A program made the translations under genes and the position numbers. A stretch of 15,504 nt of DNA, taken from Acidobacteriota bacterium. Its GTDB lineage: Bacteria > Acidobacteriota > UBA6911 > JACQSX01. Of this stretch, positions 1-15,443 are shown one piece after another. The stretch lies in the NCBI GenBank assembly GCA_036507075.1, contig DASXQR010000122.1:1-15504 (forward strand). Reading direction: 5' to 3'. The notes beneath the pieces are model-generated. The model worked only from the letters and a program-made list of their open reading frames with translations, ran no database searches and was not told the origin of the DNA. Position 1 is the first letter of the stretch, and every line of letters starts with the position of its first letter.

Positions 1-402
1 TCGGGGACGCCGCTCACCTTCATGGTGGCATCGCCGGCCGGTACGCTTGGCAACGGCCTGACCACCCGCGCCGATCTGGTAGGCGATCCGAAGCTGCCGC
101 ATCCGTCCACGGCGCTCTGGTTTAATAAGAGCGCATTGGCCGCGCCGCCGCTGTACCGGTATGGTAATTCCGGACAAGGGCTGATCGACGGGCCGGCAGA
201 CCATACGATAGATCTCGCATTGATGAAAAACTTCAATTTCACCGAAGAACGGTTTTTGCAGTTTCGCTGGGAAGTCTTCAACTCGATCAACAAAGTGAAC
301 TTGAATGAGCCCGACACCAGAATCGGCGTGGCCACCGCCGGCCAGATCTTCGGCGCCGGACAGGCGAGGCGGATGCAACTAGGACTCAAGTTCATCTTTT
401 AG
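1..402 (+). CDS. TonB-dependent receptor (Oar-like/carboxypeptidase-regulatory-domain type), C-terminal fragment; 5' part lies outside the window
   Basis: Frame is open from base 1 (SGTPLTFM...). Typical C-terminal barrel motifs: 'DLALMKNFNFTE', 'LQFRWEVFNSINKVN' and terminal 'RRMQLGLKFIF' ending in Phe. Confidence 0.85.
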   Translation, partial: SGTPLTFMVASPAGTLGNGLTTRADLVGDPKLPHPSTALWFNKSALAAPPLYRYGNSGQGLIDGPADHTIDLALMKNFNFTEERFLQFRWEVFNSINKVNLNEPDTRIGVATAGQIFGAGQARRMQLGLKFIF

Positions 403-606: not shown

Positions 607-1719
607 TTAAACTCGATAACGATCAACCTTAGCCTCATCCAGTTCTACCCCCAGACCGGGGCCCGCGCCCGGTCTTGCCTCGCCGTCGCGAATACGGAGT
701 GGCTCAGCGAGCAGATCGTCTGTGTAATAGAGCGGGCCGATGATGTCGCACGGGAAGTCCTCGGCCGTGATTGCCAGCGTCGACATGGCCAGGTGAATCA
801 TGGCTGCGCTCCCGATTCCCATTTCCAGGTTACTGCCGACGGTGGCGCGCAGGCCTGCACTCCGGGCGAAATCCGCTATCGTTCGTGCCGGACCCAATCC
901 TCCCGCCTTTCCTACGTAGATTGAAAGCACGTCGGCAGCCTGGGCCTGCGCCAGGTTGGCGGCGTCTTCCAGCGAATAAAGACTTTCATCTGCAATGATC
1001 GGAATGCCGGACCGGCGCCGCACGTCGGCCATTCCGAAAAGGTCACGGGCCGGCACGGGCTGTTCGACAAAGAATATGTCATGTGCCGCAAGTCGCTTGA
1101 TCATCTCGACTGCTTCCTGGCTGCTCCATTTGCCGTTGGCGTCGACGCCAATCTTGACCTCCCGTCCCACAACGCTTCGCACCGCTTTGACGCGCGCGAC
1201 GTCCTGGTCGGCGTCGATTCCGACCTTCACCTTTAGCGCCCGAAAACCCTGGTGTAAAGCCCAGGTGGCGATCTTTGCTGCTTGAGCAGGCTCGACGCCG
1301 GAGACAGAGAACTTGAGCGGAATAAATTCGCGGGCGGGTCCTCCCCACAGTCGATACAAAGGAAGACCTCTGTGTTTACCTTCGATGTCCCAGAGTGCCA
1401 TCTCAACAGCGGCCTTTGTGAAATAATTTCCTGCGACCTTTCGGTTTATTTTTTGGCACAGCGGTTCGATTTCGGTTGGGTCCTCGTGGTGCAGCAGCGG
1501 CTCGAAATAGTAATGAATGAAATGAGCCGCCGACGTGTGATCCTCACCGCTCCAGGCCGGCGTGCAGGAAACCTCCCCCAACCCTGTGACGCCTTCGTCG
1601 GTGTGGATCCGGACGAGCAAAAAGGGCGAGATCGAATGCGACCCGCGCGAGGCTCTTATCATCAACTCCTGCTTGATGGGAACCTGTACGGGAATGCTTT
1701 CGATGCGAGTGATTTTCAT
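607..1719 (-). CDS. Enolase superfamily, mandelate racemase/muconate-lactonizing enzyme (MLE subgroup) protein
   Basis: N-terminal 'VRIHTDEGVTGLGE' and 'AAVEMALWDIEGK'. KVK motif (K163/K165), metal ligands D193 (DAN), E219 (EQP), D244 (DES), and C-terminal 'GPGLGVELD'. Confidence 0.92.
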   Translation of the reverse strand: MKITRIESIPVQVPIKQELMIRASRGSHSISPFLLVRIHTDEGVTGLGEVSCTPAWSGEDHTSAAHFIHYYFEPLLHHEDPTEIEPLCQKINRKVAGNYFTKAAVEMALWDIEGKHRGLPLYRLWGGPAREFIPLKFSVSGVEPAQAAKIATWALHQGFRALKVKVGIDADQDVARVKAVRSVVGREVKIGVDANGKWSSQEAVEMIKRLAAHDIFFVEQPVPARDLFGMADVRRRSGIPIIADESLYSLEDAANLAQAQAADVLSIYVGKAGGLGPARTIADFARSAGLRATVGSNLEMGIGSAAMIHLAMSTLAITAEDFPCDIIGPLYYTDDLLAEPLRIRDGEARPGAGPGLGVELDEAKVDRYRV

Positions 1720-1721
1720 TC

Positions 1722-1750
1722 CCTTGGCGCTCTTTGCGTTCTTGGCGGTT
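1722..1750. repeat. Half copy of the CTTTG(C/T)G-unit palindromic repeat family
   Basis: CCTTGGCGCTCTTTGCGTTCTTGGCGGTT lies between the DUF3830-like and MLE genes. It has the same 8-9 nt periodicity as the ACCACAAAG.. repeats. Confidence 0.55.
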
Positions 1751-2226
1751 CAGTCTTCCACCCGCTCAATCCTCAGCCGGCGCGGTCCCTGGCGACGCGA
1801 GGCGCGGCAGGCCTTTGCAAAGTCGACCCAATCGTACTTCCAGTCTCCCGGGATGCGCGCAAACAAGCTGGCAAAAGTCGGAACTCCTTCCGGTCCGCGA
1901 AGAATTACGCCGCGTCCATAGACAACGCAGATCTCTGCTGTTGGATTCTTCTGACTGGTGACATTTCCGCCCGGATCGCGGAAATAAAACAATTCTCCTG
2001 GAACGGGAATTTGAGCCTGGTTTTCGGCCGGAATGTCGGGCGGATTGTCCAACAGAACAAACACCTCAGCCCCCGAGTACTGGCCATGAATCAAACTCTG
2101 CTCCAGGGGCAGAAGGTTCCAGATGTAACGGCACACTTGAGGGGCTTCGTCATCGAGCATTTCAGCGACAACCTGCTCCCCCGTTTCGGGAAAGCTCAAG
2201 CGAACTCGACGTCTTTTCTGACCCAT
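1750..2226 (-). CDS. DUF3830-family (cyclophilin-like fold) protein
   Basis: 'AEMLDDEAPQVCRYIWNLLPLEQSLIHGQYSGAEVF', 'PAENQAQIPVPGELFYF' and 'EICVVYGRG' match the DUF3830 pattern as I recall it. Lies 30 bp upstream of the MLE gene on the same strand. Confidence 0.7.
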   Translation of the reverse strand: MGQKRRRVRLSFPETGEQVVAEMLDDEAPQVCRYIWNLLPLEQSLIHGQYSGAEVFVLLDNPPDIPAENQAQIPVPGELFYFRDPGGNVTSQKNPTAEICVVYGRGVILRGPEGVPTFASLFARIPGDWKYDWVDFAKACRASRRQGPRRLRIERVED

Positions 2227-2406: not shown

Positions 2407-3144
2407 ATGCGACAATACAAGTTTAGAATTGCCCGCTCTTCCGCAACCGGGAGCGCCGCAGCCGCACATGTTTTCGCGGTCGATCTCGAAGAGCGAATGA
2501 CCGTACTGGACGGGCTATTCAAGATCCAGCGGGAACAGGACCCCACACTTTCATTTCGCTGTTCCTGCCGCGTGGGAATGTGCGGAACCTGCACGGTGTA
2601 CGTGAACAGAATCCCGCGCCTGGCATGCAGAACCAGAGCGGCGACATTGAACGGTGATTTCATCGCCGTTGAGCCGCTGCCGCACCTTCCCGTGATCAAA
2701 GACCTGGTGGTTTCCATGGAGCCGTTCTTCGCTCAGTGGAAAAGAATTCTTCCCGCATTTCATCCCGCCGACCCGCAGTCTGTTGAATTGGCGCGCATTC
2801 CGCCCTCTTCGGAAGCGGCAGCCCATACGCACGAAAAACGCGATTGCATCACCTGCGGGGCGTGCTTTACTGCCTGCGGAATCAAGTCCAGCAGCGCGGC
2901 GTATCTGGGGCCGGCCGCCATCAACAAGGCGTTCTTGCGCCTGATGGACCCACGTGACGGCAGGGTGGAGGAGCGCCTGCGTGTGCTCAACGACGAGAAG
3001 GGCGGAATCTGGCGTTGTCACACCCAATTCAATTGCGTGGCGGTCTGTCCCAAGGGGATCAATCTGAATGATTCCATCGGCCGGTTAAAGCGCGCGATGC
3101 TCCGGCCGCAAAAACTGCTGGGGAAGAAGATTGCAACTCCATAG
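2407..3144 (+). CDS. sdhB: Succinate dehydrogenase/fumarate reductase-like iron-sulfur subunit
   Basis: [2Fe-2S] motif 'SCRVGMCGTC...RLAC', then 'EPLPHLPVIKDLVV', [4Fe-4S] 'CITCGACFTAC' and [3Fe-4S] 'WRCHTQFNCVAVCPKG'. Start moved to ATG 2407. Confidence 0.93.
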   Translation: MRQYKFRIARSSATGSAAAAHVFAVDLEERMTVLDGLFKIQREQDPTLSFRCSCRVGMCGTCTVYVNRIPRLACRTRAATLNGDFIAVEPLPHLPVIKDLVVSMEPFFAQWKRILPAFHPADPQSVELARIPPSSEAAAHTHEKRDCITCGACFTACGIKSSSAAYLGPAAINKAFLRLMDPRDGRVEERLRVLNDEKGGIWRCHTQFNCVAVCPKGINLNDSIGRLKRAMLRPQKLLGKKIATP

Positions 3145-3350
3145 GGTTTGCGAGTTACGGGTTTTCGAGTTGCGAGTTGGATTATTGGTGTCTTGGTGCC
3201 TTAGGGTTTGCGGGTTACGGGTTATCTGGTTGCGAGTTTGATTATTGGTGTCTTGGTGGTTCATGAGTTTTTTACCACCAAGGCACCAAAACAGTTCAAC
3301 TCGCAACCCGGAACACGATAACCCGTAAACCGGAACTTTACCGGAACTTT
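3142..3350. repeat. Composite palindrome: outer GGGTTNC-type tandem arms around an inner TTGGTGTCTTGGTGG/CCACCAAGGCACCAA core, with left arm duplicated
   Basis: 3142-3198 is imperfectly repeated at 3202-3258 (period 60). The right arm CAACTCGCAACCCGGAAC..AACCCGTAAAC is complementary. Related copies lie at about 3890-3995 and 4350-4502. Confidence 0.85.
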
Positions 3351-3352
3351 AA

Positions 3353-3742
3353 ATGAAACATTCAATCGAGTTGATCTTTCGGAAATACCGACAGGAGTAC
3401 AGCGGCGCGTTTGCCTGGCTGATCCAGCGGGTTACGGGTTTGCTGCTGCTTTTTTACCTGTTTCTGCACGTGCGCACGGTTCATAAGCTCAGCGAGGGGC
3501 CGGCTGCGTTTGACGAGGCGTTGAGATTTTTTCAGCAGCCTGTGTTCAAACTCCTGGAGATCGCGTTGTTGGGAGTGGTCGTTCTTCATGCGCTGAACGG
3601 AATTCGAATTACGCTGTTGGATCTGGGCGTGGGCCAAAAGAGAGAGCGGCAGCTCTTCTGGCGCTTTGCTATCGGCGTTGGGGCCCTATTATTCTGCGCC
3701 GGTGCGCTGCCCATTCTGCTGTTCGCAATTCTAAAGATCTGA
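3353..3742 (+). CDS. sdhC: Succinate dehydrogenase-like cytochrome b membrane anchor, large subunit
   Basis: Three hydrophobic helices. 'WLIQRVTGLLLLFYLFLHV' and 'LHALNGIRITLLD' motifs. Confidence 0.9.
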   Translation: MKHSIELIFRKYRQEYSGAFAWLIQRVTGLLLLFYLFLHVRTVHKLSEGPAAFDEALRFFQQPVFKLLEIALLGVVVLHALNGIRITLLDLGVGQKRERQLFWRFAIGVGALLFCAGALPILLFAILKI

Positions 3743-3757
3743 AAGACGGATTGCGGC

Positions 3758-3884
3758 TTGACGGATAAAAGGGACAGACCCCATTGACGGATAAAAGGGG
3801 ACAGACCCCATTAATTGTCCGCAAAAATTGCACTTAATTGAATTCAATTGGGGTCTGTCCCTTTTATCTGTCCCTTTTATCCGT
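3758..3884. repeat. REP-like GGGACAGACCCC element (two direct copies plus inverted copies)
   Basis: TTGACGGATAAAAGG(G)GACAGACCCCA occurs twice (3758-3810). An AT-rich spacer follows, then TGGGGTCTGTCCCTTTTATC and TGTCCCTTTTATCCGT (3849-3884). Confidence 0.85.
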
Positions 3885-3889
3885 ATCCG

Positions 3890-3995
3890 GGCAGTGAGTT
3901 GAACTGGCTTGGTGCCTTGGTGGTAAAAAAGCGATCAACCACCAAGGCACCAAGCCAGGTCAACCCGCAACCCGGAACCCGTTAACCCGTAACTT
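3890..3995. repeat. Composite palindrome, second copy
   Basis: GTTGAACTGGCTTGGTGCCTTGGTGGT ... ACCACCAAGGCACCAAGCCAGGTCAAC followed by CCGCAACCCGGAACCCGTTAACCCGTAAC. Confidence 0.85.
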
Positions 3996-4001
3996 CTTAA
4001 T

Positions 4002-4343
4002 ATGTATCGCAACGTCATCAACTGGTATTTACAACGAATTACCGGCGTGCTGCTGCTGTTGCTCCTGATCGCGCATTTCTGGGTGGAGCATTACGTTGCA
4101 GACAATGTCCGCCGGGGCGAGCTCACTTATCAGATCGTGCTGGCGCGAGTTTCGCATCCGTACTGGCAGGTCATCGATATTTCATTTCTTCTGATCGCGC
4201 TTTACCACGGTTTGAACGGAGTGCGTAATATTCTGCTGGATTACAACTTTAATCGTAGTACGGTTCGTGTTTGTACCGTTGCGCTTTTTCTGGTTGGTCT
4301 GGTCTGGGCGTACTGGGGGATTGAAGCGTTCAGTAAGCTCTAA
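4002..4343 (+). CDS. sdhD: Succinate dehydrogenase-like membrane anchor, small subunit
   Basis: 'WYLQRITGVLLLLLLIAHF', 'LTYQIVLARVSHPYW' and 'LYHGLNGVRNILLDY'. Three hydrophobic helices. Confidence 0.9.
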   Translation: MYRNVINWYLQRITGVLLLLLLIAHFWVEHYVADNVRRGELTYQIVLARVSHPYWQVIDISFLLIALYHGLNGVRNILLDYNFNRSTVRVCTVALFLVGLVWAYWGIEAFSKL

Positions 4344-4349
4344 GTTTGT

Positions 4350-4502
4350 CGGAGTTACGGGTTTCGGGTTTTCGGGTTACGGGTTCGGTAGGTCGTAGGC
4401 TGGTGTCTTGGTGGTTCATGAATTTTTACCACCAAGGCACCAAGCCGGCTCAACTCAGAACTCGAAACCCGAAAACCCGAAAACCCGAAAACCTGAAACC
4501 CG
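4350..4502. repeat. Composite palindrome, third copy
   Basis: (GGGTTTC/GGGTTAC)n left arm, core TGGTGTCTTGGTGGTTCATGAATTTTTACCACCAAGGCACCAA (near-identical to 3246-3290), and (AAACCCG)n right arm ending right before ATG 4503. Confidence 0.85.
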
Positions 4503-6212
4503 ATGGAACTCTTGACCGCAGACATTTTGATCATCGGCGCAGGAGGGGCGGGCCTCCTGGCGGCCCTGCACGCGCACGAAGCAGACCGGCGTCTGAAAAT
4601 CGTGATCGCGGTAAAGGGACTTCTCGGCCAAAGCGGCTGCACGCGCATGGTTCAGGGTGGATACAATGCCGTGCTGAATCCAGCCGACTCCCTGCAGCGC
4701 CATTTCGAGGACACCATGAAGGGAGGAGCCTTCTTGAACAACCAGGAACTGGCATGGATCCTTGTGGAAGACGCTCCCAAACGAATCATTGAACTGGAAA
4801 ACAAGGTCGGATGCCTTTTTGACCGCCGCGAGGATGGAACTATCCATCAGAAGCCGTTTGCCGGACAGTCTTTCGATCGCACTGTGCATAAAGGAGACCT
4901 CACCGGCATTGAAATTATGTCCAACCTTCGTGATTACATCCTCGAGCACGACATCCAGGTGCTCGAGGAATGCCGGGGTCTGGATTTTCTGCATAGCGGC
5001 AGCCGGATAAGCGGCGCGGTTCTTCTGGACATCCGGAGCGGCCGCTTGATTGCCGCGCGTGCCGCAGCCACCCTGGTTTGCACCGGCGGCGGCGCCACGA
5101 TGTATCGGATTTCGTCGCCGTCTCTGGAGAAGTCGGGCGACGGGATGGCGATGGCCTGTCGCGCGGGTGCGGACTTTCTCGACATGGAAATGATGCAATT
5201 TCATCCCACCGGCCTGCTGGTGGGACGTTCCATGGCAACCGGAGGCCTGCTGGAAGAAGGCCTGCGCGGAGCAGGCGCGCGGCTGTTCAACGGCCGTGGC
5301 GAACGATTCATGGAACGGTACGATCCGGAAAAGAAGGAACGCGCCACACGCGATGTGGTTTCACGCTCCAGCTACCTGGAAATAGCGGCCGGCCGCGGCA
5401 CCGCCGCAGGGGGCGTACTGCTGGATGCGAGCCACCTGGGGGAAGAATTTCTTCTCCGAAACTTCCCCGGTATGGTGGAACGCTGCCGTGATTATGGCTT
5501 TGATCTGCTGCATGAAGCGGTAGAAGTTTCTCCCAGCGCGCATTACCAGATGGGCGGAGTACGGATCGATGCGCAATGCCGCACCAGTCTGGACGGGCTG
5601 TTCGCGGCGGGAGAAGATGCCGGCGGAGTCCATGGGGCCAACCGGCTGGGAGGAAATGGAGTGGCCGACTCAGTCGTGTTCGGCGCCAGGGCGGGAGATG
5701 TCATGGTCGAATACGCCGGCACGACAGCGCCCGCAGAAATCTCCATGGCGGAAGCGGAATCGATCGGCGAACGCTGGTGTCGCTTCCTGCGGCAGGACCC
5801 ATCGGAAAATGTGTTCCACCTGCGCCAGGAACTGGAAGATCTGATGTGGGAGAAAGTAGGGGTGGTGCGCAACGAGGAGAAATTGTCCCAAGCGGTTTGC
5901 TCTCTCGTTTCTCTTCAAGAGCGGGTGGCGCGCGTCAGAGCCGGCGGCGGCGGGGAATACAATGCGGAATGGAACGAGGCCATCAATGTTGCTAACCTTG
6001 CTTTGGTTGCCGAAATGATTGCGCGCAGCGCGCGCATCCGCGAGGAAAGCCGCGGAGCGCATTTCCGGTCGGATTTTCCGGCCCCAGATGCGCGCTGGCT
6101 GAAAAACATCTGTGTGATGCGGGGGAACGGCGGGTTAGAATTTTCATTCCGGCCTTTGGTCTTCAGCCGTCTGCCGCCGCCGGATCTGGAGGCGCCGAAT
6201 GAGAAGAAATGA
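4503..6212 (+). CDS. sdhA: Succinate dehydrogenase/fumarate reductase-like flavoprotein subunit (atypical; SGCT motif)
   Basis: GAGGAG FAD loop, 'QFHPTG', 'TRDVV', 'AHYQMGG', 'HGANRLGGN' and 'ESRGAHFRSDFP'. Neighbours are sdhB/C/D-like genes. The symbol denotes the family, not a proven substrate. Confidence 0.88.
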   Translation: MELLTADILIIGAGGAGLLAALHAHEADRRLKIVIAVKGLLGQSGCTRMVQGGYNAVLNPADSLQRHFEDTMKGGAFLNNQELAWILVEDAPKRIIELENKVGCLFDRREDGTIHQKPFAGQSFDRTVHKGDLTGIEIMSNLRDYILEHDIQVLEECRGLDFLHSGSRISGAVLLDIRSGRLIAARAAATLVCTGGGATMYRISSPSLEKSGDGMAMACRAGADFLDMEMMQFHPTGLLVGRSMATGGLLEEGLRGAGARLFNGRGERFMERYDPEKKERATRDVVSRSSYLEIAAGRGTAAGGVLLDASHLGEEFLLRNFPGMVERCRDYGFDLLHEAVEVSPSAHYQMGGVRIDAQCRTSLDGLFAAGEDAGGVHGANRLGGNGVADSVVFGARAGDVMVEYAGTTAPAEISMAEAESIGERWCRFLRQDPSENVFHLRQELEDLMWEKVGVVRNEEKLSQAVCSLVSLQERVARVRAGGGGEYNAEWNEAINVANLALVAEMIARSARIREESRGAHFRSDFPAPDARWLKNICVMRGNGGLEFSFRPLVFSRLPPPDLEAPNEKK

Positions 6213-6256
6213 ACCACAAAGGCACAAAGATTTTGTGTCCTTCGTGTCTTTGTGGT
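6213..6256. repeat. ACCACAAAGGCACAAAG-type palindromic repeat
   Basis: ACCACAAAGGCACAAAGATTTTGTGTCCTTCGTGTCTTTGTGGT. Confidence 0.85.
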
Positions 6257-6270
6257 GAATGCAGGGGCTT

Positions 6271-7206
6271 ATGTCAAATTCAATTTACGACACCATCGAA
6301 GAAGTATCCCGAAACCTTTATCTGCTGGCGCTCAAAGATATCCCCCAGGATGTGCGCAAAGCCCTGGCCGGCGGTGCCCAGATAGAACAACAGAAGGGCA
6401 ACAGGACCGCCCTTCAGGTCCTTTCGACGATTCTCGAAAACATCAGAGTCGCAGACGAGCAGGACACTCTGGTCTGCCAGGATACCGGGATCCCTGTTTA
6501 CAAAGTGCTCGTCGGGAGCCGACTTGACCTCGATATTCCGGAGTTGAAGGACCGGATTCGCAAAGCCTGCGAGCGGGCCACAAAGGAACACCCGCTTCGG
6601 TCAAACTCGGTTCATCCATTGAGCCGGCAAAACACGCAAACCAATACAGGGCAGGGGATTCCCATCATCAAGCTCGACTTTGTTCGCGATGGCGACAATA
6701 TTGAGATACAAATGGCGCCCAAAGGATCGGGATCCGAGAACATGAGCTTTCTGAAAATGCTCAACCCGGCCGAAGGAATCCGGGGAATAAAGAAATTTGT
6801 GCTGCAGTGCGTTTTCGAATCCGGCGCCCGACCTTGCCCGCCCGTCATTGTGGGCGTCGGCCTGGGCGGGACTTCAGATCTGGCAATGCAGCTTGCCAAG
6901 GAGGCCAGTACTTTTCGCAGCATCGGTTCTTCCAATCCCGACCTTCAGGTTGCCGCGCTGGAGAAAGAGCTGCTGGAGAAGATAAATGAGACCGGCATCG
7001 GTCCTCAGGGCCTGGGTGGGACTACCACGGCTCTGGCGGTCCATGTCGAATGGGCACACACGCATATCACGCAAAATCCTGTGGCGGTGAATATGCAATG
7101 CTGGCGAGGAGAGCGCTCGCGCGCCGTCATCGAAAAGGATGGATCGGTGAGCTACGACCTGCCGGCGCCGGTGGTGCAGAAGAAAGTGGAGTCGTTCACG
7201 GTGTAA
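6271..7206 (+). CDS. Fe-S hydro-lyase, tartrate dehydratase/class I fumarate hydratase alpha subunit
   Basis: 'CQDTG', 'PKGSGSEN', 'PCPPVIVGVGLGGT', 'GIGPQGLGG' and 'VAVNMQCW' supply three cluster Cys. SD-like AGGGG precedes ATG 6271 (alternative start 6259). Confidence 0.92.
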   Translation: MSNSIYDTIEEVSRNLYLLALKDIPQDVRKALAGGAQIEQQKGNRTALQVLSTILENIRVADEQDTLVCQDTGIPVYKVLVGSRLDLDIPELKDRIRKACERATKEHPLRSNSVHPLSRQNTQTNTGQGIPIIKLDFVRDGDNIEIQMAPKGSGSENMSFLKMLNPAEGIRGIKKFVLQCVFESGARPCPPVIVGVGLGGTSDLAMQLAKEASTFRSIGSSNPDLQVAALEKELLEKINETGIGPQGLGGTTTALAVHVEWAHTHITQNPVAVNMQCWRGERSRAVIEKDGSVSYDLPAPVVQKKVESFTV

Positions 7207-7209
7207 AAA

Positions 7210-7262
7210 ACCACAAAGACACAAAGAACACAAAGTCTTTGTGTCCTTTGTGTTTTTGTGAT
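7210..7262. repeat. ACCACAAAG-type palindromic repeat
   Basis: ACCACAAAGACACAAAGAACACAAAG T CTTTGTGTCCTTTGTGTTTTTGTGAT. Confidence 0.85.
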
Positions 7263-7278
7263 GATCAAGGAGTGTCCC

Positions 7279-7857
7279 ATGGCTGAATACAACTTCCAGA
7301 CTCCGCTCAGTGAATCAGATGTACGCAAACTTCAGTTGGAAGACACCGTCACAATCAACGGCACCATCTTCGGCATTCGCGACGCGACGCAGATCCGCAT
7401 TTTCGACGAAGGCCAGGCGCCGCCCGCCGATCTTACCGGTTCGGTCTGCCTGCACACAGCCCCCGGTGTGCGAAAACTGCCCGATGGCAGTTACGCGAAA
7501 GTCTCGATCGGAACCACCACCAGCACGCGCATGGACCGCTTTGTTCCCGGGCTGCTGGAAAAATATGGAGTGCGCGCCATCGTGGGCAAAGGAGGATTGC
7601 TGGAGGGGAGCGCCGATGCAATGCAGCGGCACGGCGCTGTCTACCTGGCAATTGTGGGTGGAGCTGCGGCGCTGGAGACCATGCAGATCGAAGAAATTGA
7701 GAAAGTCTGGTGGGAGGATTTGATGCCGGAATGCCTCTGGAAGTTTCGCGTTCGGCAATTTGGGCCATTGATTGTGGCCATCGACGCCCACGGCAACAGC
7801 CTCTATCGCAACGTGCAGGAACAGGCAGCGGAGCGAATGAAGTCATTTGAATTCTGA
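7279..7857 (+). CDS. Fe-S hydro-lyase, tartrate dehydratase/class I fumarate hydratase beta subunit
   Basis: 'RDAT', 'GTTTSTRM', 'AIVGKGG', 'GGAAA' and 'FGPLIVAIDAHGNSL'. SD AAGGAG precedes ATG 7279. Confidence 0.92.
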   Translation: MAEYNFQTPLSESDVRKLQLEDTVTINGTIFGIRDATQIRIFDEGQAPPADLTGSVCLHTAPGVRKLPDGSYAKVSIGTTTSTRMDRFVPGLLEKYGVRAIVGKGGLLEGSADAMQRHGAVYLAIVGGAAALETMQIEEIEKVWWEDLMPECLWKFRVRQFGPLIVAIDAHGNSLYRNVQEQAAERMKSFEF

Positions 7858-7911
7858 ACCGATGCCGGTGATCACCACACAGGGGACACAGAAGAGCCCT
7901 GTGCTCTCTGT

Positions 7912-8407
7912 ACTACTAACAGCGAATTTGTTGTCGGATCGCGATGATTTTGCGCCCTTGATGAGAGCGTCAGAAAGGTCGGTCTGGCGGAAGCCCGGTT
8001 CAGCGGGCTTTTGTTTTTTGTTAGCCCCGGCTTTGAAGCCGGGGAGAGGAGCCCCAAGAATCTGACCTCAGGCCGCTTTAGCGGCCTTCATTGTCCGGCT
8101 TCAGCCATCGTCGCCAATTCCTGGCAGGATGCGGCTGGATTAGAGCAGGCCCCGGAAGGCTCAAGCCGAAAACGAAAGGCCGCTGAAGCGGCCTGGCTTG
8201 GTGGTGGGGATACCTAACCCCGGCTTAAAAGCCGGGGCTAACCGAAAAGCAAAAAGCCCGCTAAAGCGGGCTGACTGATGACCTCTTCTGGTTGCTGCTA
8301 TGCTGTCCTGCGCAACCTGTCGGCGATCTCTTGTTTTCTTGGCAAGATTCTTTAACTAATGACTAATGACCGATGACGCGTTTGGTTGCGGCCTACGGCC
8401 GCGCTAG
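7912..8407. mobile_element. Putative non-autonomous element E1 (ACTACTAAC ... TGGTTGCGGCCTACGGCCGCGCTAG) inserted in a CACCACA..TGTGGTG palindromic repeat
   Basis: Both termini are shared with 9996-10118. Removing it rejoins CTGTGCTCTCTGT|GCCTCTGTGGTG, the right arm of the repeat that starts at CACCAC 7873. Confidence 0.65.
7992..8272. repeat. REPIN-like mirror-symmetric multi-hairpin element
   Basis: Hairpins H1 7992-8009, H2 8021-8044, H3 8070-8087 and H4 8097-8106 are mirrored by H4' 8158-8167, H3' 8177-8194, H2' 8218-8241 and H1' 8255-8272. Confidence 0.85.
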
Positions 8408-9809
8408 GCCTCTGTGGTGGAGATTTTCGCGGTGGGTCACGCCGCTGGCGGTCGCGCTGGCGGTTTGGGTGGTACCCCACAGCGGCTACTCCCCAAAAAC
8501 ATGGGGCCTGCTCTCCATTTTTGCCGCCACCATTGCGGGAATCATCACACAGCCTCTCCCCTCAGGCGCAATCGTCCTGATCGGGATAACGGTAGCCAAT
8601 CTTTCCGGAGTTCTCACCATTCAGCAGACGCTTTCCGGTTTCGGCAATTCCACGGTCTGGCTGATTGTGGCCGCCTTCATGTTCGCCCGCGGTTTTATCC
8701 AGACAGGACTGGGTGAGCGCATCGCCTATATCTTCATTGATAAGTTCGCCGCCGGTCCTCTCCGGCTTGGTTATTCACTGGTGATGGCGGATCTGGTGAT
8801 GGCGCCGGTTACCGCATCCAACACGGCACGCGCCGGAGGAGTGCTGTTTCCGGTGGTGCAGAGCATCGCGCGCGTCTTTGATTCCCATCCCGGCCCCACC
8901 GCGGGCCGAATCGGCGCATTCCTGATGCTGCTGGTTTTTCATGGTGACGTGGTCGTCTCCGCGATGTTTCTCACATCGATGGCGGGAAACATACTGTTGG
9001 CGGGCCTGGCGGCGCAGGCCGGAGTAACGGTCCCCTGGGTGACGTGGATGCTGGCGGCGCTTGTCCCCGGCGCGGCGGCGCTGGCGCTGGTGCCTTACGC
9101 GGTCTTCCGGCTGTTTCCTCCCGAGTTGCGCGAGACGGAACCGGCGCGGCGTTTTGCCGCGGAGCGGCTGGCGGAAATCGGTTCGCTGACCGCCAGGGAG
9201 AATCGCATGCTGGCGGTTTTTGGGCTGGTGCTTTCGCTCTGGATCACCGGCACCTGGCATCAGATCTCAGCCACATCGGTTGCCTTTCTTGGAATCGTCT
9301 TGCTCCTGATTTTTCGAGTCCTGCAGTGGAAAGAAGTACTGGAAGAGAAGGGCGCATGGGATGCGCTGATCTGGTTTGGCGGTTTGGTCATGCTGGCCGA
9401 AAAGCTCAATGAGGCGGGGCTGATGAAGGCCTTTGCCGCTCGCGCCTCACTGCTGGTTCAGGGATGGACCGGAGTGGCCGCGCTTGTGCTGTTGCTGCTG
9501 ATATACTTTTTTGCCCACTACGCATTCGCCGGAAACACCGCTTACGTGACGGCAATATTTCCGGCATTCTTTGCCGTTGCGATTTCCTGCGGCGCTCCTC
9601 CCGTTCTTTCCGCGCTCGCGTTTGGATTCTTTACCAACATCAGCTCCGGCCTGACGCATTACGGCACCGCTCCCGGAGTGATTTATTTCGGCGCCGGTTT
9701 TGTAACACAAACCCAGTGGTGGAAGCTGGGATTCATCCTCTGCTCCCTGCAGTGCCTGATCTGGCTTGCCATCGGGCTGCCATGGTGGAAGCTGATGGGA
9801 TTGTGGTGA
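8373..9809 (+). CDS. DASS (SLC13) family anion transporter, CitT/TtdT-like
   Basis: 'TGLGERIAY', 'PVTASNTARAGGVLFP', 'SAMFLTSMAGN', 'AWDALIWFGGLV' and 'LTHYGTAPGVIYFGAGF'. Start codon uncertain because it lies inside repeat DNA. Confidence 0.92.
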   Translation: MTRLVAAYGRARPLWWRFSRWVTPLAVALAVWVVPHSGYSPKTWGLLSIFAATIAGIITQPLPSGAIVLIGITVANLSGVLTIQQTLSGFGNSTVWLIVAAFMFARGFIQTGLGERIAYIFIDKFAAGPLRLGYSLVMADLVMAPVTASNTARAGGVLFPVVQSIARVFDSHPGPTAGRIGAFLMLLVFHGDVVVSAMFLTSMAGNILLAGLAAQAGVTVPWVTWMLAALVPGAAALALVPYAVFRLFPPELRETEPARRFAAERLAEIGSLTARENRMLAVFGLVLSLWITGTWHQISATSVAFLGIVLLLIFRVLQWKEVLEEKGAWDALIWFGGLVMLAEKLNEAGLMKAFAARASLLVQGWTGVAALVLLLLIYFFAHYAFAGNTAYVTAIFPAFFAVAISCGAPPVLSALAFGFFTNISSGLTHYGTAPGVIYFGAGFVTQTQWWKLGFILCSLQCLIWLAIGLPWWKLMGLW

Positions 9810-9848: not shown

Positions 9849-9923
<75 letters not shown>

Positions 9924-9940
9924 TCGCGGCTGGGAATGAA

Positions 9941-9970
9941 ATTATAGAAGATGGGCAAATTCGAAGTCAA
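9941..9970 (-). promoter_or_regulatory. sigma70 promoter of tRNA-Gly
   Basis: Minus strand TTGACT (9970-9965), 18-bp spacer, TATAAT (9946-9941), 17 nt upstream of the tRNA 5' end. Confidence 0.75.
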
Positions 9971-9980
9971 TTGCAGGCGA

Positions 9981-10168
9981 CTTAGTGTCCTTTGTACTAC
10001 TAACCATGAGAATTTTCGCGGCCTGCGCAAATTATTCGGGAGCGGAGAGACGGCCTGAGGGCCGTCTCAGCTTGGCAGGACACCTCCTTGACTTTTGGTT
10101 GCGGCTTCGCCGCGCTAAGCCTTTGTGGTTTAAAAGCCTTTCACCACAAAGGCACAAAGGACACCAAG
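9981..10168. repeat. ACCACAAAG-type palindrome interrupted by element E2
   Basis: Rejoined left arm CTTAGTGTCCTTTGT|GCCTTTGTGGT matches the reverse complement of the right arm ACCACAAAGGCACAAAGGACACCAAG (10143-10168) at 25/26. Confidence 0.85.
9996..10118. mobile_element. Putative non-autonomous element E2 (123 bp; ACTACTAAC ... TGGTTGCGGCTTCGCCGCGCTAA)
   Basis: Cleanly interrupts the palindrome arm with no target duplication. Internal hairpin GAGACGGCC-TGAG-GGCCGTCTC at 10047-10068. Ends shared with E1. Confidence 0.72.
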
Positions 10169-10174
10169 ATACTC

Positions 10175-10203
10175 GTGACATTCCCTCCCTGCTGGTTGAC
10201 AAT
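10175..10203 (+). promoter_or_regulatory. Possible promoter giving a leaderless mRNA for the second DASS gene
   Basis: GTGACA, 17-bp spacer, GACAAT, 8 nt before ATG 10212. No SD. Confidence 0.25.
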
Positions 10204-10211
10204 CTGCTTGC

Positions 10212-11615
10212 ATGCTGCGCACGCTCCTGTTCGAAATCGAAAAGCGCATCTGGCTGCTGGTCGGGTTTGTATGCGTGCTGATCATTCAATGGCTTCCGAC
10301 ACCCGCCGGCCTGACCTTCCAGGGAAAGCAGATGCTGGCGATCGTTTTTTTTGCCATCATACTCTACGTCACCGAACCAATACCGCTGCCGGGCGTTGCC
10401 ACGCTGATCGTGGTGCTGCAGGCGCTCTATCGCATTGAGACGCCGCAGGAGCTGGCGCGCTCGCTGATGAGCGACTCCCTGCTTTTCATCATCTCCACAC
10501 TGATGCTCGCAGCGGCCGTGATCAAACAGAACCTGGACCAGCGGATGCTATGGTTTCTGCTCAATTTTACCGGGCCGAATATCTCCGCTGTGATTCTCGG
10601 GTTTGTGACCGTGTGCGCGCTGCTCACGTCGTTTCTGGGTGAATCGGCCACCGCCTCGATTATGCTGCCGGTCGCCCTGGTGCTGGTCCAGCTCTTTTCC
10701 GAGCGAAGCCGCGAAGCCCCCCGCTTTTCACCGGCGCTGTTGTTCAGCATCGCGTGCGGGTGTGCCTTTTCGGGTTTTGGCACCCCTTCCGGAGGCGCCC
10801 GGAACGCCATCATGATGGATTACTGGCAGCGTCTCAGCACGGTTCGGATGAGCTACCTTCATTGGATTCAATATGCCTACCCGCTGCTGCTGGTGCAATT
10901 GCCGCTGCTCTATTTTGCGGTGCGAAGTTCTTTTCGCTACCAGGAAACCGATGTATTCGAACCGATGGTGCTGCTGCGTCGCAAGGTGCGCGAGATGGAG
11001 CGCCTCAATGCCAGGGACTACCTCACCATCGGTGTTCTGATCCTCACTATTCTCATCTGGATGACTTCCAGCGCCACCTGGGGTCTGGGCATCCCCGGGA
11101 TCGTCGGGGTGAGCCTGATGATGATCTTTGGCATTCTGGATTGGGAAGATGTCAATCACCGCGTCAATTGGGGAGTGGTGATGCTGTACGCGGGAAGCGT
11201 CTCTATGGGTGTAGGCGTCTACATCAGCGGAGCCGCGGACTGGCTGGGTGCGTGGCTCACCAATTTCCTGGCGCGCACCGGCTTTACACATGGAACGGTG
11301 CTTCACTTTTGCATCGGCCTGATAGCGATGGCCATGTCAAGCCTGGTGGGAACAGCGGGCGCGGTCGCCATTCTGGGTCCGGTGGTGCTTCGACTGAGCG
11401 CGCTTACGCAAAACAATCCCATTATTCTGGGAATGATTCTGGTGATCACTGCGGCGGCGGCGAATTTCACGCCCATGAGTTCTCCCGCCTGCACCATTGT
11501 GTATGGGAGCGGCCGCGTGCGCGCGCGCGACTACCTGCGCGTGGGCTGGAAAATGAGTCTGATTTCTTTTGGTTTGGTGTTAGTCTTTGCCAGATATATC
11601 TGGCCGCGCTTCTGA
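10212..11615 (+). CDS. DASS (SLC13) family sodium:dicarboxylate/sulfate symporter-like transporter
   Basis: 'LPTPAGLTFQG', 'TEPIP', 'TASIMLPV', 'GFGTPSGGARNAI', 'VNWGVVMLYAG' and 'PMSSPACTIVYGSG'. Many hydrophobic helices. Confidence 0.88.
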   Translation: MLRTLLFEIEKRIWLLVGFVCVLIIQWLPTPAGLTFQGKQMLAIVFFAIILYVTEPIPLPGVATLIVVLQALYRIETPQELARSLMSDSLLFIISTLMLAAAVIKQNLDQRMLWFLLNFTGPNISAVILGFVTVCALLTSFLGESATASIMLPVALVLVQLFSERSREAPRFSPALLFSIACGCAFSGFGTPSGGARNAIMMDYWQRLSTVRMSYLHWIQYAYPLLLVQLPLLYFAVRSSFRYQETDVFEPMVLLRRKVREMERLNARDYLTIGVLILTILIWMTSSATWGLGIPGIVGVSLMMIFGILDWEDVNHRVNWGVVMLYAGSVSMGVGVYISGAADWLGAWLTNFLARTGFTHGTVLHFCIGLIAMAMSSLVGTAGAVAILGPVVLRLSALTQNNPIILGMILVITAAAANFTPMSSPACTIVYGSGRVRARDYLRVGWKMSLISFGLVLVFARYIWPRF

Positions 11616-11618
11616 CTT

Positions 11619-12545
11619 ATGAAACTGCTCGTTTGTATCGGAGGAGAAGTTTTCTCCACTGCAACCGTGCGGCTTGCCGTGGAGTTTGCCGCCAGGTTGC
11701 AGGCCGATCTTTCCATCCTTTATGTGGGAAGCCCCATCACACAGTTCCACCAAAAAGAAGTGCAACTGGCCAAGGAAAAACTGGCGCAGTGGATGATCGA
11801 AACGCCTGAAATGAAGGTCCTCAATTCGGCGCTCGATATTTTACGCGAGATGAATTTCCTGAAGCTGGACAATCAGGGACAACTCAACATCCGCCACGGA
11901 TTCAAGCCCGAAATCAGCGGCGCCTTTGAGTTCCATCTTTACGGAAGCCTGGGTCAAAACGTGCGGTTTCGGTACCGCGAAGGCGAGATCGTGGATAACA
12001 TCCGCAAAGAAACGGAGCAGGTTCACTACGATCTGGTTTTTGTCGGCGCCAGCCAGAAGCGCCGGCTGGTGCACCGTATCCTGCAGTTTGTCCCCAGCAA
12101 CACGATGATGATCAAAAAGGGAGCGACGCATCCGGAAAAATTCCTGCTGTGCGTGAAGCGTTCCAAATCGTCGCGCTCCGCGGCGTGGTTTACCATCCAG
12201 ATCGCGCAGTTGCTTTCCATGCCGATTGAAATCCTCGCCACGACCCGCTTCCCGGCCAAGGTGGCGCGGCTCAAGGTAATGACCGACCGTTACATGAAGG
12301 TGTGCGAACGGTATCAGATTCCCAGCAGCAGTTACGTACGCGTCGGCGGATTGGAGGATGCTGTGATGCAGGTTGCCACGCCGCTGCACCTGGTTGTGAT
12401 GGGTCCCAGCCGGGTGAATGAGCTGATGCAGTATTTCTTCGGCAGCCTGCCCGTGAAAATCTCGCAAAAAGTAAACGCCTCCATTCTGCTGGTCAAAGAA
12501 GAGCGCAAAGAAGAGTTGAAGAACCTGCTGCAAAGACCGGCCTGA
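11619..12545 (+). CDS. Universal stress protein with tandem USP domains
   Basis: 'KLLVCIGG..S..AVEFA..LQADLSILYV', 'YDLVFVGA', and second domain 'LVVMGPS...FFGSLPVKISQKVNASILLVK'. Starts 3 bp after the DASS stop. Confidence 0.8.
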   Translation: MKLLVCIGGEVFSTATVRLAVEFAARLQADLSILYVGSPITQFHQKEVQLAKEKLAQWMIETPEMKVLNSALDILREMNFLKLDNQGQLNIRHGFKPEISGAFEFHLYGSLGQNVRFRYREGEIVDNIRKETEQVHYDLVFVGASQKRRLVHRILQFVPSNTMMIKKGATHPEKFLLCVKRSKSSRSAAWFTIQIAQLLSMPIEILATTRFPAKVARLKVMTDRYMKVCERYQIPSSSYVRVGGLEDAVMQVATPLHLVVMGPSRVNELMQYFFGSLPVKISQKVNASILLVKEERKEELKNLLQRPA

Positions 12546-12728: not shown

Positions 12729-13410
12729 AGGCCCGAAGGGCCGCAAGGAAATAGCCCCGGCCGTCAGGCCGGGGAGCCCGGGTTAATAGCACCGAGCGCC
12801 GAAGGCGCGGCACTCGCAGCGAGCCCACAAAAATTTTGTCGCAGATTTTCAAGCTGGCCGGTTATGTAGATCATGGCTGGCAAATACATCTCGGCGAATC
12901 TTCATTTCGTCTGGAGCACAAAAGAGCGCAGGCAGCTGCTGAATCCGGAGTGGGAAGAACGTCTTTACGCCTACATTGGCGCCATCGTTTCGGCAAAGGG
13001 AGGCAAACTGATGGCCTGTGGAGGACAACCCGATCATATTCATCCCTATGTGTCCATGCCTTCCACTCTCTCGATAGCCGAGATGGTCAATGCCATCAAA
13101 TCAAATTCTACAAGATGGGTCCGGAGGATGTTTGACAGAAGATTTCAGTGGCAGGAGGGTTACGGAGCTTTCAGCGTGAGTAAATCGGTCGAGCAGACGG
13201 TCATTAGTTACATCAAGAACCAGGACAAGCACCACAAGCGAATCGATTTTAAGCGGGAGTTCCTGGCTTTACTGAAACGCCACGGCATTGCCTACGATCC
13301 TCGCCATATTTGGGATTGAGCGGAGGGTGTCGCGCCTTCGGCGCTCGGTGGTATGAATACACCTCCCCGGCCTGACGGCCGGGGCTATTTCCTTGCGGCC
13401 CTTCGGGCCT
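12729..13410. mobile_element. Y1/HUH transposase cassette bounded by about 85-bp inverted three-hairpin arms (REPtron/IS200-like)
   Basis: Arms at 12729-12813 and 13327-13410. 12729-12776 is a perfect 48-bp inverted match to 13363-13410, plus a 23/24 inner match. Confidence 0.8.
12873..13319 (+). CDS. tnpA: IS200/IS605-family Y1 (HUH) transposase TnpA
   Basis: 'HFVWSTKER', HUH motif 'DHIH', 'FQWQEGYGAFSVS' and catalytic Tyr in 'YIKNQDKHH'. Confidence 0.93.
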   Translation: MAGKYISANLHFVWSTKERRQLLNPEWEERLYAYIGAIVSAKGGKLMACGGQPDHIHPYVSMPSTLSIAEMVNAIKSNSTRWVRRMFDRRFQWQEGYGAFSVSKSVEQTVISYIKNQDKHHKRIDFKREFLALLKRHGIAYDPRHIWD

Positions 13411-13533: not shown

Positions 13534-13968
13534 ATGTCGTTACCCAGACTCTGGAGGCGAACAAAACGACAATTTCGGCGCTCGTTGCATCGACGGGCGC
13601 ACAAGCTCAGGCGGCGTCTGGCGCCTCGGGTGGGGAGCATTGGGGAAACGATTGCCCTAAGGTTTCTGCTGAAGAACGGATTCGATGTGCTGGCGCGAAA
13701 CTTCCGCATCGGAAAGGGGGAGCTTGACCTGATTGCCTACCAGGGAGAAGAGTTGGTGTTCGTCGAAATCAAGACACGGTCCCGTGCCGACGATTTTGCG
13801 CCGCAACTGGCGGTGACTCCGGCCAAGGAGGAACAAATCTTGCGCCTGGCCCGGGCATTCCGGCATCGGTATGGGCTGGAAGAAATGCCGGTTCGGTTTG
13901 ACGTGGTGGCGGTGACGTTGCGAGAAGAGCGGGAACCGAAAGTGGAGCATTTCGTAAAAGCGTTTTGA
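13534..13968 (+). CDS. yraN: YraN family (UPF0102) putative PD-(D/E)xK nuclease
   Basis: 'GETIALRFLLKNGFDVLARNFR..GELDLIA..LVFVEIKTR' and 'RFDVVAV'. Confidence 0.92.
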   Translation: MSLPRLWRRTKRQFRRSLHRRAHKLRRRLAPRVGSIGETIALRFLLKNGFDVLARNFRIGKGELDLIAYQGEELVFVEIKTRSRADDFAPQLAVTPAKEEQILRLARAFRHRYGLEEMPVRFDVVAVTLREEREPKVEHFVKAF

Positions 13969-13970
13969 AA

Positions 13971-14026
13971 ACCACAAAGACACAAAGGACACGAAGATCA
14001 TTTTGTGTTCTTTGTGCCTTTGTGGT
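13971..14026. repeat. ACCACAAAG-type palindrome between convergent yraN and lat (possible bidirectional terminator-like role)
   Basis: ACCACAAAGACACAAAGGACACGAAG ... TTTGTGTTCTTTGTGCCTTTGTGGT. This intact copy shows the uninterrupted TTTGT-GCCTTTG junction. Confidence 0.85.
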
Positions 14027-15366: not shown

Positions 15367-15443
15367 CTTCACACCTTCAGTATCTCGTGGCAGGCAAACG
15401 GCCTTCGGCCGGACTTGGTTTCAGAATTCGAGTCAGAACTTTT

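Follow-up and report, generated by a model that had tools for sequence, protein, structure and literature searches.

What would a second complex II, encoded together with a hydratase, do in a bacterium that has housekeeping enzymes for the same chemistry elsewhere in its genome? The question is raised by a 15,504-nt stretch of Acidobacteriota DNA (contig DASXQR010000122.1 of assembly GCA_036507075.1, the genome called G000 below), whose operon for a succinate dehydrogenase/fumarate reductase (SDH/FRD)-like complex and a split Fe-S hydro-lyase was originally predicted to serve a non-canonical analogue of succinate or fumarate. That general idea holds, and in our best reading the analogue is narrowed to a C3 sulfonate and the adjoining DASS transporter is taken out of the core. 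We consider it probable that the substrate is some C3 sulfur oxyacid, and give roughly even chances to a specific route, in which 3-sulfopropionate would undergo quinone-linked oxidation to sulfoacrylate and then hydration to 3-sulfolactate.

Here, the window means all 15,504 nt; its genes were called from a six-frame open reading frame (ORF) scan combined with Pfam/NCBIfam family searches, and residue numbers are given for E. coli FrdA followed by the window flavoprotein. The predicted order sdhB-sdhC-sdhD-sdhA, followed by the split hydro-lyase and a DASS gene, all on the + strand, was confirmed by the ORFs and family hits. The complex and hydro-lyase comprise:

2407..3144, + strand: SdhB/FrdB-like Fe-S subunit, 245 amino acids (TIGR00384, 192.6 bits, cut-off 88)
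3353..3742, + strand: membrane anchor C, cytochrome b556-like (TIGR02970, 66 bits, cut-off 52.3)
4002..4343, + strand: membrane anchor D (PF01127)
4503..6212, + strand: flavoprotein of the SGCTRMVQGG / LEEGLRG / NRLGGNGV subfamily, proposed catalytic subunit of a 3-sulfopropionate:quinone oxidoreductase (TfrA model NF004900, 599.7, cut-off 718; motifs; tree)
4638..4646, + strand: Cys46-Thr-Arg48, with Cys at the position of the covalent FAD ligand His44 and Arg for Val46 (alignment to E. coli FrdA)
5253..5255, + strand: Glu251, replacing substrate-binding Thr244 (alignment to E. coli FrdA)
6271..7206, alternative start 6259, + strand: class I [4Fe-4S] hydro-lyase alpha, proposed sulfoacrylate hydratase (TIGR00722, 302.8 bits; three Cys motifs)
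7279..7857, + strand: hydro-lyase beta, proposed sulfoacrylate hydratase subunit (TIGR00723, 167.2 bits, cut-off 145.15)

The complex has the hallmarks of the complex II superfamily: a flavoprotein with FAD_binding_2 and Succ_DH_flav_C domains and an intact catalytic set (His232, Arg287, His355 and Arg390), an Fe-S subunit with the cysteine motifs for [2Fe-2S], [4Fe-4S] and [3Fe-4S] clusters, and Sdh_cyt anchors, which are predicted to be diheme, with two candidate haem His motifs in anchor C and two more in anchor D. Glu245 and Arg248 are also kept in the alignment to E. coli FrdA. The four-subunit layout, three Fe-S clusters and catalytic set are common to canonical succinate:quinone oxidoreductases (SdhCDAB/FrdABCD), but the altered active-site motifs that had been noticed in the window are real: His44 is replaced by Cys46, with one extra residue before it, Val46 by Arg48, Thr244 by Glu251 and Ser395 by Gly. 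The B-first order, the hydratase that appears to be cotranscribed, and the sulfonate-related neighbours of the subfamily likewise set the window complex apart from the canonical enzymes. According to the available text of PMC5773532, His44 is the FAD ligand required for succinate oxidation in FrdA, and Thr244 twists the substrate and is needed for efficient catalysis; excerpts of PMC2680327 agree on the role of His44 at the flavin. Judged by its sequence, the window complex is thus a complex II superfamily member that lacks the His44 and Thr244 by which canonical SDH/FRD is defined, and its flavoprotein falls below the curated SdhA/FrdA cut-offs (TIGR01812, 475.9 against 567.3; TIGR01176, 354.4 against 932.7).

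The best curated model for the flavoprotein is TfrA, from the thiol:fumarate reductase of methanogens, although it too scores under its cut-off; TfrA presumably also carries a Cys at the His44 position. Unlike TfrAB, the window complex has membrane anchors, and its 245-residue SdhB takes the place of a long HdrD-like partner, which is missing (TfrB model, 134.1 against a cut-off of 385, covering only positions 5-219 of 488).

The operon is a paralogue, because a canonical complex II and a second class I fumarase exist elsewhere in G000, an assembly of 95.7% completeness. Contig C48 encodes a canonical FrdA/SdhA-B-C-D set (NF006686, 880.8 bits, cut-off 854), in which a flavoprotein carrying RSHTVSAEGG and ITEASRG precedes an Fe-S subunit and the FrdC/FrdD anchors. 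The second fumarase, a fused one, lies on contig C217, and NadB-like and AspA-like genes are found elsewhere in the genome; tblastn detected no further canonical SdhA in G000. The module is therefore separate from the housekeeping tricarboxylic acid cycle genes, as originally predicted, and the objection that it might be the genome's only SDH and fumarase falls. The housekeeping complex II (C48, L001:5330-8568) is itself of the E. coli FrdABCD type, not SdhCDAB or SdhCAB.

The substitutions are constant across the subfamily. Glu occupies the Thr244 position in 127/127 subfamily sequences, as against Thr in 37/37 controls, and Cys and Arg occupy the His44 and Val46 positions in all 120 sequences that cover the site, an invariance that holds partly by definition, since any one of the three motifs sufficed for membership. 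These sequences form one clade (FastTree support 0.91) in a tree whose backbone is weakly supported. The subfamily is common among marine Alphaproteobacteria and rare in the window's phylum (3/401 genomes, G000 included), and the closest titled relatives are records from Acidobacteriota, Planctomycetota and Gemmatimonadota. Its commonest complete order, B-anchor-anchor-A-alpha-beta, was found at 16 loci, and at 11 more with a single anchor ORF called. One locus, L137, contains two flavoprotein/Fe-S pairs and a type 2 hydratase.

The neighbourhoods of the subfamily are what point to sulfur. Neighbouring genes were called with our own scripts and labelled by Pfam/NCBIfam; loci shorter than 10 kb were left out and six near-duplicates (L173, L125, L142, L105, L140 and L155) were dropped. 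Of the 81 subfamily loci that fall beyond the window's clade, 32 have SuyA-like, SuyB-like, TauE or YeiH genes nearby, as against none of 25 canonical loci, the latter being mostly from Rubrobacter and the loci in general being related to each other, so that kin are not independent observations. The marker-bearing loci span Bacillota, haloarchaea, Actinomycetota, Chloroflexota, Desulfobacterota and Alphaproteobacteria. Annotated plasmid records agree with this: SuyAB-like and TauE genes accompany the cluster in Methylobacterium radiotolerans, together with ComC/SlcC-like genes, and in haloarchaea, together with an ArgH-like gene. YeiH and TauE occur together at the clusters of Paracoccus versutus (with both sulfolactate dehydrogenase genes, ComC/SlcC-like), M. 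nodulans (flanked also by two Mo sulfite-dehydrogenase-type genes), NT-25 (with a sulfolactaldehyde-reductase-like dehydrogenase and gabD) and Pseudomonas MPC6 (with methylmalonate-semialdehyde dehydrogenase and the sulfite dehydrogenase SorT, the latter at 666.9 against a model cut-off of 570). TauE was noted at the cluster of Sulfitobacter THAF37 and YeiH at that of P. seriniphilus, and the cluster in the Sulfitobacter S190 record had no marker. Candidate feeders of 3-sulfopropionate are the GabD and sulfolactaldehyde-reductase-like dehydrogenase of NT-25, class III aminotransferases directly upstream of the cluster in L044 and L112, and an SSADH-like gene within the SuyAB cluster of genome G243. 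The SuyAB label of split UxaA pairs (~100 + ~385 amino acids) rests on their layout and their ComC/SlcC/TauE context; no curated Suy model matched them. SlcC/ComC-SuyAB-TauE is the set for sulfolactate mineralisation in the available text of PMC12421959, where SuyAB, ComC and SlcC act on sulfolactate. These families and XcbC recur beside the subfamily, but act downstream of it or through other folds, and none of them is in the window.

The hydro-lyase adds a second line of evidence. Its alpha subunit retains the three cluster Cys motifs, and with TIGR00722 and TIGR00723 both over cut-off the pair is a class I Fe-S hydro-lyase; alpha also passes the fumarate hydratase model NF004885 (313.9, cut-off 276). 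The alpha/beta split, the cluster cysteines and conserved Asp/His/Arg/Thr/Lys motifs resemble two-subunit class I fumarate hydratase and TtdAB, but the window enzyme differs from both in GPTT to GTTT, RDxAH to RDA(T/N/S)x and HxGP to HTAP changes (beta reads GTTTS.R for canonical GPTTS.R and GIRDAT for ARD.AH), and is only 27-34% identical to the housekeeping fumarase of G000. A tartrate reading was rejected on the L-tartrate dehydratase cut-offs (TtdA, 199.6 against 365; TtdB, 160.4 against 264). In a FastTree phylogeny, the hydratase of the window's clade is sister, with support 1.0, to the SuyAB-linked hydratases of Bacillus and of locus L051.

Subfamily loci differ in the enzyme that would take sulfoacrylate onward, and Suy genes follow that difference among loci of at least 10 kb. 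They accompany hydratases of the window's type (type 1) at 12/35 loci and ArgH/XcbC-like lyases, which often stand in where a hydratase is missing, at 8/9, but type 2 hydratases at 0/23 and CoA-ligase/CoA-transferase loci at 0/22. XcbC, a relative of the ArgH-like lyase, makes sulfoacrylate according to the available part of PMC9457059. We suggest that the type 1 hydratase and the ArgH/XcbC-like lyase would add water at C2, giving sulfolactate and requiring SuyAB, whereas the type 2 hydratase, or a CoA ligase with enoyl-CoA hydratase, would hydrate C3 to give a bisulfite adduct that falls apart into sulfite and malonate semialdehyde; a malonate-semialdehyde dehydrogenase in L088 fits the latter exit. 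A betaproteobacterial variant (L019-L039, L107, L118, L145 and L154) encodes a CoA ligase, two enoyl-CoA hydratases, an MmgE/PrpD protein and often a type II HAD protein, with neither a hydratase nor a nearby sulfite exporter.

A published proteome supplies the third line. In the available text and supplement of PMC12421959, a "cluster 3" of fumarate/tartrate-annotated proteins and TauE rises 20-1000-fold in Paracoccus wurundjeri Merri on sulfofucose relative to glucose; the authors assign it no function there and tie it tentatively to the Krebs cycle. The log2 changes (supplementary file 2) are +5.5 for the 26.6-kDa Fe-S subunit, +4.3 for a 12.6-kDa protein, +9.9 for the 64.35-kDa flavoprotein, +6.1 for the 34.7-kDa alpha and +7.3 for the 24.6-kDa beta subunit; a regulator and a sulfonate-type ABC transporter (+5.8 to +9.8) are in the same cluster. 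Canonical SdhA/B are ~0.45 log2 lower. We matched these proteins to the subfamily by order and mass only: Fe-S subunit, gap, 12.6-kDa protein, flavoprotein, alpha and beta, with TauE and the ABC transporter, are arranged as in subfamily loci, and the P. versutus cluster has the same order with masses of 26.3, 12.65, 63.9, 34.95 and 24.55 kDa, each within 0.5 kDa. The induction shows a tie to sulfonate metabolism, and neither a substrate nor a direction.

Degradation of 3-sulfopropionate is a pathway for which genes are wanted. In the accessible portion of PMC11489063 the route is described as unpublished, with a thesis reporting that Roseovarius nubinhibens ISM degrades homotaurine/3-sulfopropionate by way of sulfoacrylate and sulfolactate, exactly the chemistry proposed here; the citing passage names no genes. 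The same source leaves the 3-sulfopropionate route of B. wadsworthia open, a point repeated for Bilophila in the part of a 2026 review available to us. Our literature search, which lay mostly outside subscription journals, found among the papers listed none that assigns genes to the sulfoacrylate/3-sulfopropionate route.

In the mechanism that we propose, the flavoprotein would remove two hydrogens from 3-sulfopropionate (-O3S-CH2-CH2-COO-) to give sulfoacrylate, and electrons would travel via the three Fe-S clusters and then the haems of the anchors to quinone and on to an aerobic respiratory chain. The retained His355 and Arg390 would hold the carboxylate end, leaving the side remodelled by Thr244 to Glu and Val46 to Arg to take the sulfonate. 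Cysteinyl-FAD links occur in other flavoenzymes, and the Cys that invariably replaces His44 may form one of the 8alpha-S-cysteinyl FAD type, which may keep the flavin potential high enough for oxidation. A single-sequence AlphaFold model of the flavoprotein (mean predicted local distance difference test score 31) was too poor for active-site geometry. Hydration at C2 by the alpha/beta enzyme would then yield 3-sulfolactate, which relatives would cleave with SuyAB, aided by ComC/SlcC, to pyruvate and sulfite; in G000 sulfolactate might instead be exported by a DASS exchanger or cleaved by an unrecognised lyase, such as an enzyme of the MLE family. The genes on either side of the core include:

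1..402, + strand: 3' end of the gene for a TonB-dependent receptor, the body of which is encoded at the end of contig C226 (350-nt overlap at 95.7%)
607..1719, - strand: enolase-superfamily enzyme, MLE subgroup (KxK, D-E-D and K motif residues; family search)
1750..2226, - strand: DUF3830 protein (PF12903)
8373..9809, + strand: DASS transporter, CitT/TtdT/DiT exchanger type (TIGR00785; closest PDB entries DiT1/6WTW)

The DASS protein belongs by sequence to the exchanger family, as had been predicted, but its gene lies ~515 nt downstream of beta, behind a terminator-like hairpin (7986-8015), and no homologue was found at E<=1e-8 in any other locus compared. It is a local addition, not a conserved member of the module, and its link to the cluster is uncertain. 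The divergent DUF3830 and MLE genes, in turn, are conserved parts and lie on the - strand as described (PF12903 and family searches). MLE-family orthologues of at least 55% identity occur in 7/11 clade genomes, including G000, and none above 48% in the other genomes sampled. The gene is accompanied by those for DUF3830, creatininase, SSF transporter, SDR, lactonase, GGT-like, HAD-II and aldehyde dehydrogenase proteins, a module that may supply the substrate or dispose of sulfite. DUF3830 homologues 63-76% identical to that of the window are found in L007, L010, L132 and L178-L180, co-conserved with the MLE gene in the window's clade; an Atlas search with DUF3830 returned only DUF3830 clusters. 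The MLE-family enzyme could catalyse an upstream step or act as an alternative sulfo-lyase. The idea that it replaces SuyAB was only partly supported, since genome G401 has both and G403 and G406 have neither, and MLE genes are also found with type 2 hydratases in L010 and L053.

The locus likely continues on contig C226, because the last 350 nt of that contig match window positions 1-350 and its end holds the co-travelling genes. This end (L196:4117-17724) encodes a GGT-like protein with a twin-arginine-like leader, an SSF transporter, a lactonase, an SDR, a creatininase and a TonB receptor, as well as proteins of 826 and 321 amino acids without Pfam hits, and the TonB-dependent receptor at the join is 66% identical to that beside the L007 cluster. 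The cluster thus probably extends upstream onto C226. With conserved partners on a neighbouring contig, no DASS counterpart elsewhere and no known desulfonating enzyme found in G000, the original prediction of a self-contained module with DASS as its uptake step is not supported. Its list of analogues fared unevenly: the sulfo-substituted option gained from the neighbourhoods, the hydratase tree and the P. wurundjeri induction, while amide, methyl, phosphono and tartrate compounds found little support. We rejected a phosphonate reading, as the HAD neighbour passes a type II haloacid dehalogenase model and the markers are sulfur-specific.

Several observations weigh against 3-sulfopropionate oxidation, beyond the kinship of the loci compared and the matching of the Paracoccus proteins by order and mass. 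Within the window's own clade, 0/16 loci of at least 10 kb carry SuyA, SuyB, TauE or YeiH markers, their neighbours being amidohydrolase, lactonase, SDR, GGT, HAD-II and MLE genes. No desulfonating enzyme was found in the locus or in G000: SuyB has no orthologue there (the best match, at 35%, is a full-length UxaA), and with the queries used neither ComDE nor a CuyA-family member nor an Xsc above its cut-off turned up in this 95.7% complete assembly, although elsewhere it encodes one TauE, two Mo enzymes of the sulfite oxidase family and a ComC-like protein that scores below cut-off. The 22 CoA-ligase/CoA-transferase loci have no marker at all. Placing a Glu next to an anionic sulfonate runs against intuition, and FrdA variants that have lost the covalent His are unable to oxidise succinate (available texts of PMC5773532 and PMC2680327). 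The P. wurundjeri hydratase is probably of the second type, unlike that of the window; moreover, 3-sulfopropionate is not an expected sulfofucose intermediate, so the induction may reflect sensing of sulfolactate or sulfite, or reverse flux. Neither R. nubinhibens nor Bilophila (B. wadsworthia) was among the named matches listed (two lists of at least 120 rows each and 10 clusters, most rows being without names), which does not show that they lack the subfamily.

The reaction could instead run backwards: sulfolactate would be dehydrated to sulfoacrylate, which quinol would reduce to 3-sulfopropionate for export through the DASS exchanger, as in malate/fumarate respiration. The main reason to entertain this is that loss of His44 typically leaves only a reductase (excerpts of PMC5773532 and PMC2680327), and TfrA, the closest model, is a reductase. 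Reduction would also suit the exchanger-type DASS next to the cluster, the failure to find a desulfonating enzyme in G000, an upstream SDR and lactonase that resemble the entry of a sulfo-Entner-Doudoroff route, and induction on sulfofucose, where sulfolactate is an intermediate (available text of PMC12421959). The chief counter-argument is that the invariant Cys, with its one-residue insertion, could form a cysteinyl-FAD. The clusters also contain 3-sulfopropionate feeders and sulfite-handling genes, and DASS is not conserved. Many carriers (Bacillus, Methylobacterium, Rhodococcus and haloarchaea) are aerobes, and COX1 was detected in 5/5 clade genomes tested, which fits the oxidative direction; we regard reverse flow as unlikely. 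A DsrA search gave no match in any genome, controls included.

A shift of the window's clade to a sulfur-free analogue, for instance a succinamate-type amide released by the creatininase/GGT/amidohydrolase module, would account for the lack of markers at the 16 clade loci and of a desulfonase in G000, for the conserved amidohydrolase-type partners and MLE/DUF3830 genes, and for Glu251, which would suit a neutral hydrogen-bond donor such as the amide NH2. The tested catalytic positions, however, are the same as in SuyAB-linked members, which carry the Glu too, and the hydratase of the clade is sister to SuyAB-linked ones. SuyB orthologues occur in 2/10 clade genomes, both with ComC/SlcC-like neighbours and one also with an SSADH-like gene, against background rates of 4/398 and 1/240 sampled genomes. 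In addition, L101 and L144 share a molybdopterin oxidoreductase and Fe-S/NrfD pair with the SuyAB loci L041 and L128; this pair, 60% identical in L041 and L144, may be a membrane sulfite oxidase. A sulfur-free substrate is, in our judgement, improbable.

Substitution of 3-sulfinopropionate, from 3-mercaptopropionate oxidation, for the sulfonate would lead through sulfinoacrylate and sulfinolactate to sulfinopyruvate. Sulfinopyruvate loses sulfite spontaneously, so no lyase would be needed and the missing SuyAB of G000 would be explained. In L137 and L138 a homologue of 3-sulfinopropionyl-CoA desulfinase (487 bits with NF042439 against a cut-off of 600; 5AF7 as best PDB hit) and a class III CoA-transferase are encoded directly behind the flavoprotein gene (L138:3643-6223), and 2-hydroxyacid dehydrogenases without SuyAB are found in L054-L059, L091, L092 and L192. 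Yet SuyAB, ComC and SlcC act on sulfolactate (available text of PMC12421959), and both the thesis route cited in the portion of PMC11489063 at hand and the sulfofucose induction involve sulfonates. We judge the sulfinate quite improbable. An ordinary second SDH/FRD and fumarase for other conditions is very unlikely: the complex retains four catalytic residues and every Fe-S motif, alpha passes NF004885 and the P. wurundjeri authors looked to the Krebs cycle, but the Thr244 needed for efficient catalysis is replaced in every subfamily sequence, canonical copies exist in G000, the neighbourhood signal separates the subfamily from canonical loci, and canonical SdhAB was uninduced in P. wurundjeri while the paralogue rose up to 1000-fold (available portions of PMC5773532 and PMC12421959).

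If 3-sulfopropionate oxidation is correct, the operon would encode a membrane complex II whose physiological substrate is not succinate, possibly with a different covalent flavin link. Breakdown of 3-sulfopropionate is still an open question, for which the module may supply the missing genes, with candidates in the cultured strains Paracoccus versutus, Methylobacterium radiotolerans, Rhodococcus jostii RHA1, Cupriavidus necator N-1 and Haloarcula; it would also account for the strongly induced, unassigned cluster in the available proteome of PMC12421959. Because its members carry fumarate reductase or L-aspartate oxidase annotations, the subfamily is likely misread in metabolic reconstructions. 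More tentatively, and with more doubt than confidence on our part, the complex may represent a widespread, undescribed class, a cysteinyl-FAD 3-sulfopropionate:quinone oxidoreductase with four convergent sulfoacrylate exits and, in G000, MLE as a SuyAB-independent sulfo-lyase.

Glutamate-mutase-like E/S/L genes flank the cluster in Betaproteobacteria, with S/L-like genes in Desulfobacteraceae (L021, L037, L039, L050 and L051). One might speculate that a B12 mutase there has as its substrate a sulfonate counterpart of glutamate, for instance homocysteate. A methylsuccinate/mesaconate reading of these neighbours was not adopted, as L051 also has Suy/TauE genes.

Two soil metagenome runs yielded contigs that tile most of the stretch and differ little from it, and one of the runs is possibly the source sample. 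Short palindromic repeats of several families, resembling repetitive extragenic palindromes, fill the intergenic spaces at 2240-2360, 3139-3335, 3742-3994 and 4346-4500 and continue at 6213-6258, 7210-7264, 7986-8272 and 10140-10169; they appear to be widespread, given the very high contig depth that they drew in the soil runs. A promoter scan stayed at chance level (3 found, 3.0 expected), and no plasmid match was found. Downstream of the DASS gene lie a tRNA-Gly(GCC) (9849-9923, - strand) and, in 10212-12545 (+ strand), a further, unrelated DASS gene and one for a universal stress protein; we found no link between the cluster and the genes in 9849-12545. The remainder of the stretch is ordinary, encoding an IS200-family transposase (12873-13319, + strand), a YraN protein (13534-13968, + strand) and an L-lysine 6-transaminase (14026-15372, - strand).

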